Shown: piece by piece, positions 7,197 through 11,609 of the stretch
How positions within the stretch are numbered: the first letter of the stretch is position 1
How the letters are laid out: each line of letters begins with the position of its first letter
Assembly (NCBI GenBank): GCA_048940445.1
Contig: JBHLON010000035.1
Coordinates: 1 to 32,829 of the forward strand
Source: Promethearchaeota archaeon
GTDB lineage: Archaea; Asgardarchaeota; Lokiarchaeia; Sigyniarchaeales; SOKP01
Direction of reading: 5' to 3'
Length of the DNA stretch: 32,829 bases
Program-made: the position numbers and the translations under genes
The notes under the pieces: model-generated
Database searches by the model: none
What the model was told of the DNA's origin: nothing
Seen by the model: only the letters and a program-made list of their open reading frames with translations

Positions 7197-7589
7197 GTGA
7201 TAAAAATCAGAATTTTTATAAGTTACAAATATGAAGATTATGAATATGCAAATGGGTTAGAGGGTTTACTTAAAAATCCAAATAATATATATCGACATTC
7301 CCCAAAGAGAGAAAAGGAAGATATGAGAGAAAATGGAGAAGAAGCAGTGAGATCATATCTTATAGGGTTAATTCGGGATTGTGACGCGTTAGTATGTTTA
7401 ATTGGTAGAAATACTCATAATGCAACTGGAGTTATGTATGAATTAGAAGCAGCTAAATCGTTAGGAAAAAAAATCATAGCCGTAAGAATCCCTAATACTT
7501 TTGGAGGTTTACCTAAACTTCTTAAGTCTTGGGGGATAATTGAGATAGAATGGAACGCTTTAAAAATAAATAATTCCCTAAGTAATTGA
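7197..7589 (+). CDS. TIR-like domain protein (MTH538/DUF1863, ThsB-like)
   Basis: 'RIFISYKYED', 'IRDCDALVCLIG..T', 'VMYELEAAKSLGKKIIAVRI' with the catalytic Glu, and 'W' in the C-terminal strand. Confidence 0.85.
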   Translation: MIKIRIFISYKYEDYEYANGLEGLLKNPNNIYRHSPKREKEDMRENGEEAVRSYLIGLIRDCDALVCLIGRNTHNATGVMYELEAAKSLGKKIIAVRIPNTFGGLPKLLKSWGIIEIEWNALKINNSLSN

Positions 7590-7607
7590 TGAAAATGAAT
7601 ATATTGG

Positions 7608-8660
7608 TTGGAATATATGCATTCTAAATGTGTCTTCACTGATTTATGTAGTTTTTGTGATGATTTCTTTTATAATCTCTGTTGTTTGCGTTCAATTAAA
7701 GATCAAAAAGATTTTAAAAAATGCATTAAAATAGGGTTATGTCCAAACCTTAATTTGTGTCAAGACGCAATAAATGGTAAACTTAGAAGAACGATGATAT
7801 TTCACAAGGTTATTCCAAATTTAAAGGATATTGAATCATTTGATTATATTGTAAAATATCCTTTTAGTGGGTTTAAAACACGGTTTATTCCCCGGATTTC
7901 TGTATACGGTGAAAGTTCAAAAAGACAAATTGAAATTGTGAAGAATTTAAACTTAAATTGTATTATTGTTAGTTTAAAAGAAATGATTTCAAATAGAGAT
8001 GGTGAGATTCTCAAAGAAGACTTTAAAGTTAACTTACATGAGAAATTTAATTATGATGGGCAAATAATCCTGCAGACTAACATTCCTGATTGTTTTTGTA
8101 TGAAAATCATAAATAACTCTGATGAATATATTTTAGCCCTAAAATGTCTCAGACCAGATATCATCACAACATTTGATGCTAATTTTTATTTAGACCAACC
8201 TTTATTCGTTAGTTCTATTCAAATGCTGAATATTCTAAAGGCTAATAGGTTCATTAGTGAAATTGATATTCCTCAGATTTTTTTATTGCCTCCTGCCCCT
8301 ATACCTTTATTTAAATCAATTTTTGATGTTTTTATTAAGAGTAATCATCAATCAATCTGCATTCCATGTGGAGAATTTAAAAAATCAGATCAGTCATATC
8401 TTTTAAAAATAATAAGATACATAAACCACACTAGAAAGATAATGGACAAAAATTTTGAACTACTATTAATATCAAAAAATCCTGATAAATCATTGTTTTC
8501 TGATTGCTATTCATCTAATTCTTGGACAAAAATTAAAAAAGGAAATAATGGACAAAATCATTCAGATAAAATGCAAAGCAATTTAGACAGAACTATTAAA
8601 AAAGCTAATAAAATTCGACTCCAAAAATCTTTAATATCATTTATTAGACGAGGTGTGTAG
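7608..8660 (+). CDS. Cys-rich N-terminus plus DUF4417-like (tRNA-guanine transglycosylase/DpdA-like TIM barrel) protein
   Basis: Eight Cys in the first ~52 aa. 'FIPRI', 'IIVSLKEMISNRDG', 'IILQTNIPD', 'LRPDIITTFDANFYLDQP' (cf. DUF4417 'TPDFSLY.D.P') and C-terminal 'DCYSSNSW' (cf. TGT-like 'DS.SW'). Recognised from memory of the family, not by search. Confidence 0.6.
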   Translation: MEYMHSKCVFTDLCSFCDDFFYNLCCLRSIKDQKDFKKCIKIGLCPNLNLCQDAINGKLRRTMIFHKVIPNLKDIESFDYIVKYPFSGFKTRFIPRISVYGESSKRQIEIVKNLNLNCIIVSLKEMISNRDGEILKEDFKVNLHEKFNYDGQIILQTNIPDCFCMKIINNSDEYILALKCLRPDIITTFDANFYLDQPLFVSSIQMLNILKANRFISEIDIPQIFLLPPAPIPLFKSIFDVFIKSNHQSICIPCGEFKKSDQSYLLKIIRYINHTRKIMDKNFELLLISKNPDKSLFSDCYSSNSWTKIKKGNNGQNHSDKMQSNLDRTIKKANKIRLQKSLISFIRRGV

Positions 8661-8662
8661 AT

Positions 8663-9214
8663 TTGGGTAGTGGTATAAGAGTAAAACAACGCTATAGGAA
8701 CCCAAGCACAAAAACGAAACAAAGAAAACCAGAATATATAAGATCTCCTTCAATACCTATTAAGATCTTGCTTGCTCATGACAATAGAATAGACTATCAT
8801 ACACAAAAAGCTCATAGATTAGCTAAATGGATGGATCAAAAAAAAGAATTTGAAGTTTTATATGATAAGAAGTTCTGGAAGAAAGGAGAAATAACCTCAG
8901 TAACAGAGACTAATAGAAGAGAGCAGGAAATGGTACAAAAAGCAGATGTCCTTGTACGTTTGATACATCCATCCTCTAAAACTGGCGAAAAGCGGCATGA
9001 GGGAGCAAAGAGAGAATTTAGAAAAGCTATGAGAGTAGGTAAACCCGTAATTGAGATCTACTATATGGACGCTAGAACAAGTTCTACTCGTAGAGTTCAA
9101 GAAACTCATTATAAAAACAGAATAGTAGTTGGATTAAAAAAAGGAGAGCGAATAGAAAAAGGTCTTAAAAGGGGGCTAGAGGAATACAAAAAATATAAAA
9201 ATGAAATGAATTAA
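8663..9214 (+). CDS. Divergent, highly basic TIR/SEFIR-like fold protein
   Basis: 'IKILLAHD...HTQKAHRLAKWM...FEVLYD', 'ADVLVRLIHP', 'EGAKREFRKAMRVGKPVIEIYY' follow the TIR strand/helix order with Glu at the catalytic position. The TTG start lies 2 nt after the upstream stop, with AGGTG upstream. Confidence 0.6.
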   Translation: MGSGIRVKQRYRNPSTKTKQRKPEYIRSPSIPIKILLAHDNRIDYHTQKAHRLAKWMDQKKEFEVLYDKKFWKKGEITSVTETNRREQEMVQKADVLVRLIHPSSKTGEKRHEGAKREFRKAMRVGKPVIEIYYMDARTSSTRRVQETHYKNRIVVGLKKGERIEKGLKRGLEEYKKYKNEMN

Positions 9215-9674: not shown

Positions 9675-9731
9675 CTAAAGAATATGAATTAGAAAAATCT
9701 AATTTAGAATGATCTTATTATTGATTTTAGA

Positions 9732-10424
9732 TTATCGAATTACTATATCGTTAATAATTAATCTTGCTAATGAGGGATAAATTTTGGAAATATAAAGCTC
9801 TTCTCTTAGATTTTCATAATTGTATTTCCATGGAAAAGTCCAGTCTCGATCGTACCGAACGAATTCATCATATAACAACCTTGCTGCTCCCCCTGAAGAT
9901 GCAACTAAATAAAATGGATTATTTGGATAAAATTCTCTAAACATTTCAAATTCATCTTCAATTCCTTCCATACCTCCAACAAAAATACCTGCGTGAAGAT
10001 AATTATCTTTAAGCATCCGATTTCTCATTTGATTTAGACTTTGAGTTCTATCATTATTCATATTCTCAGTCCAAATTATTTTTCCTAATTTTAGATCTAA
10101 TAATTCTTTAGTATACTTACTAATGATATTTTTAAAAAATTCTGATTGGTAGATTTTAATCCTATTAGGATTAATCTCGTTTAAACTAAATTTCATAGCA
10201 ACTTTAAGTATTAATGGAGATATTGTAGGATGTCCTCCAAAAATCAAATTTCCATCTCTTTTTAATATCTCTTCTACAAATGAAACGATTGCGTTTGTGA
10301 TATCAAGAGGATTGGTATTTCTGGAGTATTTTGGATCCCGTTCTGCTGAAGGAAGACTCGATGACAATAATATATTCTTATCTAGTAATTCAGAGTTTTT
10401 CTCAGTAGTTTCCTTAAAAATAAT
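9732..10424 (-). CDS. SLOG cluster 3 family nucleotide-binding protein
   Basis: 'NILLSSSLP', 'LIFGGHPTISPLI', 'IYQSEFF', 'SL..MR..ML', 'AGIFVGGMEGIEDEF', 'VASSGGAA'. The frame is open upstream of the called TTG (10367) to 10427. Confidence 0.85.
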   Translation of the reverse strand: MIFKETTEKNSELLDKNILLSSSLPSAERDPKYSRNTNPLDITNAIVSFVEEILKRDGNLIFGGHPTISPLILKVAMKFSLNEINPNRIKIYQSEFFKNIISKYTKELLDLKLGKIIWTENMNNDRTQSLNQMRNRMLKDNYLHAGIFVGGMEGIEDEFEMFREFYPNNPFYLVASSGGAARLLYDEFVRYDRDWTFPWKYNYENLREELYISKIYPSLARLIINDIVIR

Positions 10425-10436
10425 TAATCACTTCCT

Positions 10437-11609
10437 TTATTGATTTATAATAAATAAATTCTTTTTATCATTTAAAATCCACTCTAAAACTTCCTTTTGA
10501 AAATCAGGTAGTTTTTCTGCTTTATAAAATAGAATTTTTTTAGTATCATTATGAAAATCTTTGATTTTCTTTGAGATATTGTCAATATAATAAAGATCTT
10601 CTGGTTGTGGAAAGTGAAGAGCCATTGTAATTAAACGATCTGAATCTGATTTCTTACTGTTAGTAAAATAAATCACCCAACTTTGTAAATAGTTATAATA
10701 ATGATAATCTTTGGAATAAGAAGTTTCAATACTTCTCAAAAAGTCATTTCTTCTTTGATTAAGTCCATAAGCATGCAGACTCTCAATTTCATTTATAATT
10801 CCTTCAACAAGATTTTCTTTTATAACGTAAAATTCTTTACTTTTAACAAGATCATTATTTATATCCAATTTTATTTTAGGTAAATTAAAAGTTTCACTTA
10901 TTTCTTTATCCCTATCGCACCAACTTACTACATAGACAGGAATTTCATGTCTTAATGCATAAATCACTTCTTTAGAAATCCATTGAGACTTATTTGCTTT
11001 TGGAGATTCAATTACTAATAAAAATGATTTATCTTCTAATGATTCGTAAATCCTCTCTTCAAAATCAATTCCGACATCAATGTCATAAAGATCTAAGAAA
11101 ATATTGAATTTCTGCTGAGACAGTTTATCAAATAATTGAAAAGCCATCCCTTGACCGTCATCTCTTCTGTAACTTATGAAGATTCTTCGATTTTTATCTT
11201 CTAAGCCCAAATTCTCAAAAATTTCTCTTACTAATTTTTTTTCTGGAACTTGGTATCTATCCCAGAAAAATATATTTATTTTTAATAATAATTCAGGAAT
11301 ACAATCATTAATAATCTGTTGCGAATCAAGGACAGGAATTATAAAAATGCCAGCATTTTTAGCCTCTTTTAATAAGTCAATATTTGTTTTTCTAATGTTA
11401 GCAGATCCAAAATAAATCATAATTTTTGGACCTTCAACAAGTTTTTCAAATTGATTATGAAAGATTTTGAAGGATGAGGTAAAATAACCACAGATATTCC
11501 GTTCGACATATTTCTGAGTCTCAGTTATAAGAGCTTTCTCCAAATTTAAAGCTTTAGACTTAGTTGAGTGATCATAGATTAAAGAAACACTATATTCATA
11601 TTTCGCCAT
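10437..11609 (-). CDS. Long TIR-domain protein (degenerate N-terminal TIR-like + intact TIR_2 + C-terminal domain)
   Basis: 'RRIFISYRRDDG..MA.QL...L....FNIFLD...I..G.DF.E.I...L.D...LLVIESP....SQWISKEV.YAL'. The N-terminal 'IMIYFG...IFIIPV...IPELL..IN...W' resembles an inactive TIR. Confidence 0.88.
   Translation of the reverse strand: MAKYEYSVSLIYDHSTKSKALNLEKALITETQKYVERNICGYFTSSFKIFHNQFEKLVEGPKIMIYFGSANIRKTNIDLLKEAKNAGIFIIPVLDSQQIINDCIPELLLKINIFFWDRYQVPEKKLVREIFENLGLEDKNRRIFISYRRDDGQGMAFQLFDKLSQQKFNIFLDLYDIDVGIDFEERIYESLEDKSFLLVIESPKANKSQWISKEVIYALRHEIPVYVVSWCDRDKEISETFNLPKIKLDINNDLVKSKEFYVIKENLVEGIINEIESLHAYGLNQRRNDFLRSIETSYSKDYHYYNYLQSWVIYFTNSKKSDSDRLITMALHFPQPEDLYYIDNISKKIKDFHNDTKKILFYKAEKLPDFQKEVLEWILNDKKNLFIINQ

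Follow-up and report, generated by a model that had tools for sequence, protein, structure and literature searches.

The locus described here occupies positions 7197-11609 of a 32,829-nt stretch of archaeal DNA, called the window below, which comes from a 3.64 Mb assembly that is 93% complete (G000). Six genes in two convergent groups encode TIR-type proteins, a SLOG protein and a protein with a TGT-type barrel, and together they probably form a composite Thoeris-type antiviral locus. The genes are the following:

7197..7589, + strand: short ThsB-type TIR, 130 aa, Glu82, leading the Cap10-like module (PF08937, 48 bits; PADLOC ThsB and PDC-M50B)
7617..8660, + strand: Cap10-like TGT barrel, 347 aa, with an N-terminal eight-Cys domain (AlphaFold2 (AF2) model, structural matches)
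8663..9214, + strand: TIR/NDT-fold protein, 183 aa, Glu118, with a disordered basic MGSG tail (fold search, alignment, complex model)
9243..9674, + strand: ThsB-type TIR, 139-143 aa, Glu79 numbered from GTG 9255 (PF08937, 61 bits; PADLOC ThsB, 9e-29)
9732..10424, - strand (annotated start TTG 10367, probable start ATT 10424): ThcA, stand-alone SLOG cluster-3 protein (NF058525, PF18180)
10437..11609, - strand: ThcB4-like long TIR, 390 aa, Glu214 (NF058526; PADLOC ThsB PDLC00434, 6e-37)

All six open reading frames (ORFs) were checked and are intact, and the coordinates, orientations and convergent layout given in a preliminary description of this DNA were borne out. The annotated intergenic gaps range from 2 to 69 nt and are, in gene order, 18-27, 2, 28-40, 57 (between the convergent stops) and 69 nt. 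The last of these is probably only 12 nt, since the length of the ThcA homologs (225-232 aa) points to ATT 10424 as the likely start of the gene. Homologs of the TIR at 9243-9674 reach upstream of GTG 9255. Non-ATG starts are frequent in the window (7197, 8663, 9243, 10424) as well as in loci L023 and L099, and they include probable ATT or ATA codons backed by homolog lengths. The identical six-gene order was found in another locus (L004), which argues against misassembly. The host and a Promethearchaeota metagenome-assembled genome (MAG; G158) belong to one family, which agrees with the earlier assignment of a TIR-type defence locus to an Asgard archaeon; those homologs that carry names belong to Ca. 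Lokiarchaeota.

Four TIR domains with a catalytic Glu had been proposed. The Glu motifs could be located in all four proteins (E82, E118, E79 and E214) and three of the TIRs passed the Pfam cut-offs, but the protein encoded at 8663-9214 gave no TIR match by sequence. The SLOG cluster-3 protein was recognized as such (LD_cluster3, E 4e-40). Effectors of the SIR2, Macro, caspase or membrane type are not encoded within the six-gene locus. The six genes are two modules, a type III Thoeris system (9255-11609) and a module consisting of a TIR, the TGT barrel and the TIR/NDT-fold protein (7197-9214).

In case of the first module, ThcA scored 169.5 bits with NF058525 (cut-off 110) and matched PF18180. 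The ThcB4-like gene, which adjoins ThcA in the same orientation, reached 218.8 bits with NF058526, 1.2 under the cut-off of 220, with an E value of 1e-64 over profile columns 43-363 of 375. Two further short ThsB-type TIRs, a feature of type III Thoeris, were found above the Pfam cut-offs, while NCBIfam matches to other ThcB models were absent. The TIR at 9243-9674 travels with the ThcA/ThcB4 pair, as TIRs of its type neighbour these genes in L004, L014 and L091 as well. Judged by these profile matches, 9255-11609 is a type III Thoeris system of ThcA, a ThcB4-like long TIR and a ThsB-type TIR. The primary paper on this type is said to be that of van den Berg et al. (2024). Relatives of ThcB4 are located on proteobacterial plasmids.

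In the published description of type III Thoeris, several TIRs are combined with a SLOG effector, and the signalling is uncharacterised (bioRxiv 10.64898/2025.12.03.692087). The window resembles it in having a stand-alone SLOG cluster-3 protein beside a ThcB4-type long TIR and more short TIRs; it differs in being archaeal, in being spread over two convergent units and in the joined TGT/tail pair, which is not in the family definition. The preliminary description had drawn its comparison with type IV Thoeris, to which it ascribed short and long TIRs, a stand-alone SLOG and a caspase. According to its primary paper, however, type IV is a two-gene operon of a short TIR and a caspase, and Pfam, PADLOC and NCBIfam scans revealed no caspase-like effector among the six window proteins; type III is the right comparison. 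Nor is the system wholly new, as had been suggested, since the SLOG and long TIR pair is ThcA with a ThcB4-like protein, and TIR operons with Cap10-type TGTs have already been mentioned (bioRxiv 10.64898/2025.12.03.692087).

The 347-aa protein of the second module was modelled with AF2 (predicted template modelling score 0.83) as a TGT (beta/alpha)8 barrel. Its best structural match was archaeosine TGT (Z 19.4, root mean square deviation 3.1, 250 aligned residues), followed by QTRT2 (Z 16.3), bacterial TGT (16.1), DpdA (15.5) and Cap10 (13.6), with generic barrels at 13.2 or below. The identity to TGTs is about 10-13%, and the Pfam, PADLOC, NCBIfam and PDB sequence searches with the barrel gave no match. 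Thus, of the former designation "DUF4417/TGT-like", the TGT fold was confirmed and the DUF4417 part was not: only one of 35 family members matches DUF4417 (PF14386), at E 0.068, and the window protein does not match at all. DUF4417 is a minority label (13-23% of the members) on clusters of look-alikes in the Atlas. Relatives of the barrel were found neither in IMG/VR nor in plasmids.

Together with 34 homologs the barrel forms an alignment of 35 sequences. Since a profile comparison with Asgard archaeosine TGTs failed (Prob 0.4%), the residues were mapped solely by a weak alignment to a profile of Cap10, built from five Asgard Cap10 sequences of QueC-bearing operons; this comparison gave Prob 13.7% and E 0.002 over 191 columns, strand by strand. 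D187, invariant in the 35 barrels, aligns with the base-reading Asp122 of Cap10. The nucleophile position, 299 (Asp248 in Cap10), is occupied by Ser in 30 of the 35 sequences, the window protein included (S299), and in none of them by Asp. Position 153, corresponding to the base-reading Asp73 of Cap10 (the Asp of DSGG), holds Gln, Leu, Thr, Ile or Val, and Gln (Q153) in the window protein. The register is exact around strand 8 and less sure at strand 3, where the invariant D158 could substitute for Asp73. Because the nucleophile position is never Asp, the barrel is probably catalytically dead. The N-terminal domain of the family has eight invariant Cys residues and is a probable metal-binding domain.

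The constant neighbour of the barrel is a gene that starts with Met-Gly. It follows the barrel gene in 21 of 21 distinct loci (less than 95% identity), and in 20 of them it begins 2-23 nt after the barrel stop, the exception being L098 with its premature barrel stop. In 20 loci the product is homologous to the 183-aa protein of the window, while in the remaining one, in genome G183, it is a CD-NTase, the cyclase of the cyclic oligonucleotide-based antiphage signalling system (CBASS). This CD-NTase shares 47% identity with a canonical cyclase of type IV CBASS and is followed by a Cap17-like effector, without Cap9. The complete G183 locus (L017:7810-12596) is type IV-like and comprises a DUF6293 regulator, the homolog of the probably dead TGT, the CD-NTase starting with MGDS, the Cap17-like effector and another small nucleotidyltransferase. 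Divergent regulators of the HFX_2341/DUF6293 type stand upstream of the barrel gene in L006, L017, L022, L023 and L099, which belong to a more distant clade.

The N-terminal tail of the 183-aa protein is disordered and basic and begins with MGSG; starts of the form MG[GSAT]G occur in 2 of the 4503 ORFs of the host genome. The closed genome G143 (4.32 Mb) encodes a 183-aa homolog without the Gly tail and has neither this barrel nor QueC; G242 is a second, less certain, case of the same kind. The operon of G143 (L072:5441-8089) consists of the tail-less homolog, a TIR, PDC-M50A and ThsB, with no TGT. A distant homolog (P0043, E 8e-10) is located in an OGG-QueC-TGT operon, and no relatives of the 183-aa protein were found in IMG/VR.

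The complex of the barrel with the 183-aa protein was modelled with a score of 0.76, compared with 0.00 for the best control; the mark used was reached by 58 of 80 solved pairs and by 2 of 110 mismatched pairs. The runs shared at least 66% of the contacts, and the predicted local distance difference test (pLDDT) of the partner was at least 74. In the modelled interface residues 2-31 of the tail lie on residues 157-166, 189-208, 226 and 252-262 of the barrel and on the Cys domain, which grips tail residues 23-26.

A pair of this kind is known from bacteria. The ancillary module of type IV CBASS comprises Cap9 (QueC), Cap10 (TGT) and Cap11 (OGG), with Gly2 of CdnD bearing NDG (Wassarman et al., bioRxiv 10.1101/2025.04.06.647259; PDB 9NTN). 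The tail of CdnD, M(G/S)G(G/S)GG, is deazaguanylated by Cap9 at Gly2 and binds in the Cap10 pocket, and in the Rhizobiales Cap10 both Asp248 and Asp73 are essential (bioRxiv 10.1101/2025.04.06.647259). As in this module, the TGT barrel gene of the window immediately precedes the gene of an immune enzyme whose disordered tail is Gly-led, the tail is modelled on the pocket face, and the equivalent of Asp122 is kept; moreover, a type IV-like cyclase is the neighbour of one member of the barrel family. Agreement of the window's tail with the CdnD motif is limited to the four positions MGSG at its start. Unlike the CBASS module, the operon lacks Cap9 and Cap11, its partner is a TIR/NDT protein, and the barrel has no equivalents of Asp248 and Asp73 and carries the additional eight-Cys domain.

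Thoeris operons with cap9, cap10 and cap11 have been noted as a prediction (Yirmiya et al., bioRxiv 10.64898/2025.12.03.692087, Fig. 6G). These too are TIR signalling operons with a Cap10-type TGT predicted to bind a TIR, but they keep Cap9 and Cap11, which the present family has not; here another barrel subfamily and another tail-bearing protein are involved, with links to ThcA/ThcB4 or PDC-M50A. In other Asgards the order TIR, optional Cap9, Cap10 and Gly-tail TIR was seen with a homologous first TIR, the TIR at 7197-7589 being 47% and 39% identical to those leading the Cap9-Cap10-Gly-tail TIR operons of two other Asgards (L079, L081). L077, L079, L080 and L081 comprise one canonical type IV CBASS, found within the same genus, as well as three operons of the Cap9-Cap10-Gly-tail TIR kind; the latter belong to other Asgard families and one of them holds two Cap10 copies. 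The first TIR also resembles the TIR component M50B of PDC-M50, a PADLOC candidate of membrane protein M50A and TIR M50B, with a weak match (1.5e-08), and in 13 related loci it stands together with M50A; the differences are that M50A was not found in the host assembly and that PDC-M50 has no TGT component.

Taken together, we regard a composite Thoeris-type antiviral locus, in which the TGT-fold protein serves as a Cap10-like tail receptor, as the probable explanation, with the TGT-fold protein most likely a regulator and not an effector. Once Met1 is removed, the 183-aa protein would dock with its Gly-led tail on the active-site face of the barrel, with the Cys domain gripping the tail as modelled. 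Since the barrel would be unable to perform TGT chemistry without its nucleophile, it may act as a clamp which holds the partner off, or primed, until infection releases it. At least one of the TIR/NDT proteins that bear the Glu would then cleave NAD+ or a related nucleotide to an adenosine diphosphate ribose (ADPR)-type signal, NAD+-derived signalling by TIRs being established Thoeris biology. In the host genome the signal would most likely be received by the SLOG protein ThcA, and in most relatives, judging from gene context, probably by the membrane protein PDC-M50A.

Several observations weigh against this model. The Cap10-like module mostly occurs without ThcA/ThcB4. Archaeosine TGT is structurally closer to the barrel than Cap10 is, the sequence kinship to Cap10 is weak, and the essential Asp248 and Asp73 of Cap10 are not kept. 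The high score of the complex may be due to its similarity to Cap10-CdnD, whose structure has been solved. Cap9 is absent from the operon in 21 of 21 loci, and in the assemblies G000, G158 and G183 no Cap9 was found beyond one housekeeping-type QueC.

The single QueC of the host (C126:2770-4347, L025) is a 525-aa protein with a fused N-terminal NAD-binding epimerase-like domain, and most of the 48 matching genomes of the family likewise have QueC within a frame of 520-560 aa. Because QueC is so common in the host's family, its co-occurrence with the barrel is uninformative. QueD is present in the host, whereas QueE and an archaeosine TGT were not found in the 93% complete assembly. Genes for an ArcS-like protein and its radical-SAM partner are present (C21:3406-6649) and five relatives have an archaeosine TGT; the missing TGT is either an assembly gap or a real loss. 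In the L019 locus group housekeeping-type QueC copies flank the island. In L019:4204-11928 the module stands between two QueD/QueC copies, and the left QueC fragment is 92% identical to the right one, which looks like an insertion with duplication at queC. As regards the state of the tail on the 183-aa protein, we lean slightly towards an unmodified one; a 7-deazaguanine mark put on in trans by the housekeeping QueC seems doubtful, and any other state improbable.

The linkage of TIR, TGT and SLOG genes is repeated in independent genomes. ThcA and ThcB4 accompany the module in complete form in four loci (the window, L004, L091 and L098) and in part in three more, and in three proteins (P0027, P0041 and L074) ThcA is fused to the 183-aa family. 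The window may nevertheless hold two neighbouring but independent systems, a type III Thoeris in its intact form and a Cap10-like module that became an orphan when PDC-M50A was lost; we consider this rather unlikely, and it would be compatible with the tail-receptor part of the favoured explanation. PDC-M50A is present in 13 of 20 loci of the module, ThcA is absent from most, and the barrel module can do without ThcA. PDC-M50A was sought twice in the 93% complete host assembly, once in a search without a positive control and once by tblastn with two homologs, and was not found either time. The order and orientation of the blocks vary, and decayed copies are common (L012, L014, L075, L098, L101). 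However, the three loci with sufficient flanks and without PDC-M50A (the window, L004 and L098) all hold complete ThcA and ThcB4, and the fusions to ThcA and the intactness of the six window genes are not what independence would suggest.

According to a second, unlikely, alternative, the 183-aa protein is a nucleotide-destroying effector similar to NDT or CMP hydrolases, which the barrel holds off like an antitoxin. The modelled core has the TIR/NDT fold, and the NDT relatives, including MilB (Z 13.4), come first (Z 14.6-13.1), above the TIR domains (Z 12.5). Type VIII Thoeris has a CMP-hydrolase effector, and with the fusion to a SLOG sensor the arrangement looks like one of sensor and effector. 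On the other hand, Z differences of 1-2 are small and NDT and TIR matches interleave, so that the fold and Glu118, the sole invariant column among 28 homologs, are what can be assigned. The few Pfam matches within the family are to TIR_2, ThsB_TIR and SEFIR more than to NDT, and in related operons it is signal makers (CD-NTase, ThsB-like TIRs) that follow Cap10.

The preliminary description had placed the TGT-fold protein in the effector or signal-processing slot, either as effector or as converter of the TIR product to the final signal. The lack of any SIR2, Macro, caspase or membrane effector in the locus would fit this, and with D187 kept the barrel could bind a purine. This role has become very improbable, as the nucleophile is missing, the pocket face is modelled as filled by a protein tail, the constant partner is a Met-Gly protein, the barrel also stands beside a CD-NTase that has its own effector, and dedicated effector candidates accompany the barrel. 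A DpdA/DUF4417-like enzyme inserting 7-deazaguanine into DNA and guarded by the TIR proteins is scarcely tenable: the structural match to DpdA, the labels DUF4417 or DpdA on a minority of the Atlas look-alikes and the one locus flanked by QueD/QueC are outweighed by the absence of the nucleophile in 35 of 35 sequences, by the tailed constant partner and by the lack of a recurring dpdB/C or nuclease partner in the loci read.

Among 400 genomes of the phylum, the barrel was found in three intact copies and one remnant, the 183-aa family in eight genomes and ThcA in three, in two of which it lies beside the 183-aa family. Decayed copies (L012, L014, L075, L083, L098 and L101) show internal stops, a frameshift or a partial ThcA, suggestive of fast turnover. 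Such rarity and frequent decay are as expected of mobile defence genes. Parts found in only 3-8 of the 400 genomes, and often decayed, do not support the relevance to the origin of eukaryotic TIR immunity that had been proposed.

To the left of the locus, 6129-6818 (- strand) encodes a 229-aa protein with four paralogs of 335-606 aa in the genome and the common motif YWLG-x-ADG, which we read as LAGLIDADG-like; the Pfam search gave no match. The protein looks C-terminally cut, and may mark the edge of an island. On the right (window 11692-15210) a thiolase-fold gene and two BKACE-type genes open a cluster for lipid metabolism that has no connection with the defence locus. A promoter scan with a bacterial model gave 33 matches, compared with 32 by chance.

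We found no paper on a Cap9-less, nucleophile-less subfamily with a Cys domain that is common to TIR/NDT and CD-NTase partners, or any that connects this subfamily with type III Thoeris. The barrel might even be the sensor of infection, holding an unmodified Gly tail until the pocket is taken over by a 7-deazaguanine base or a protein tail of viral origin, which releases an interchangeable TIR/NDT protein or CD-NTase, with the signal read by ThcA. This version is quite improbable; if true, the barrel would belong to a plug-in module that exerts control without any modification, and type III Thoeris would gain a trigger. In the single system examined so far Cap10 cannot do without its nucleophile, and Cap10 is not known to have a target after binding the tagged tail. 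The present family would be a natural Cap10-like version without Cap9 and nucleophile, used with TIR/NDT proteins or a CD-NTase, so that binding of the tail and transfer of the base are separated in it. The recurrent association with ThcA, which includes fusions, offers a handle on the signal and the output of type III Thoeris, and both systems are extended to Lokiarchaeia.

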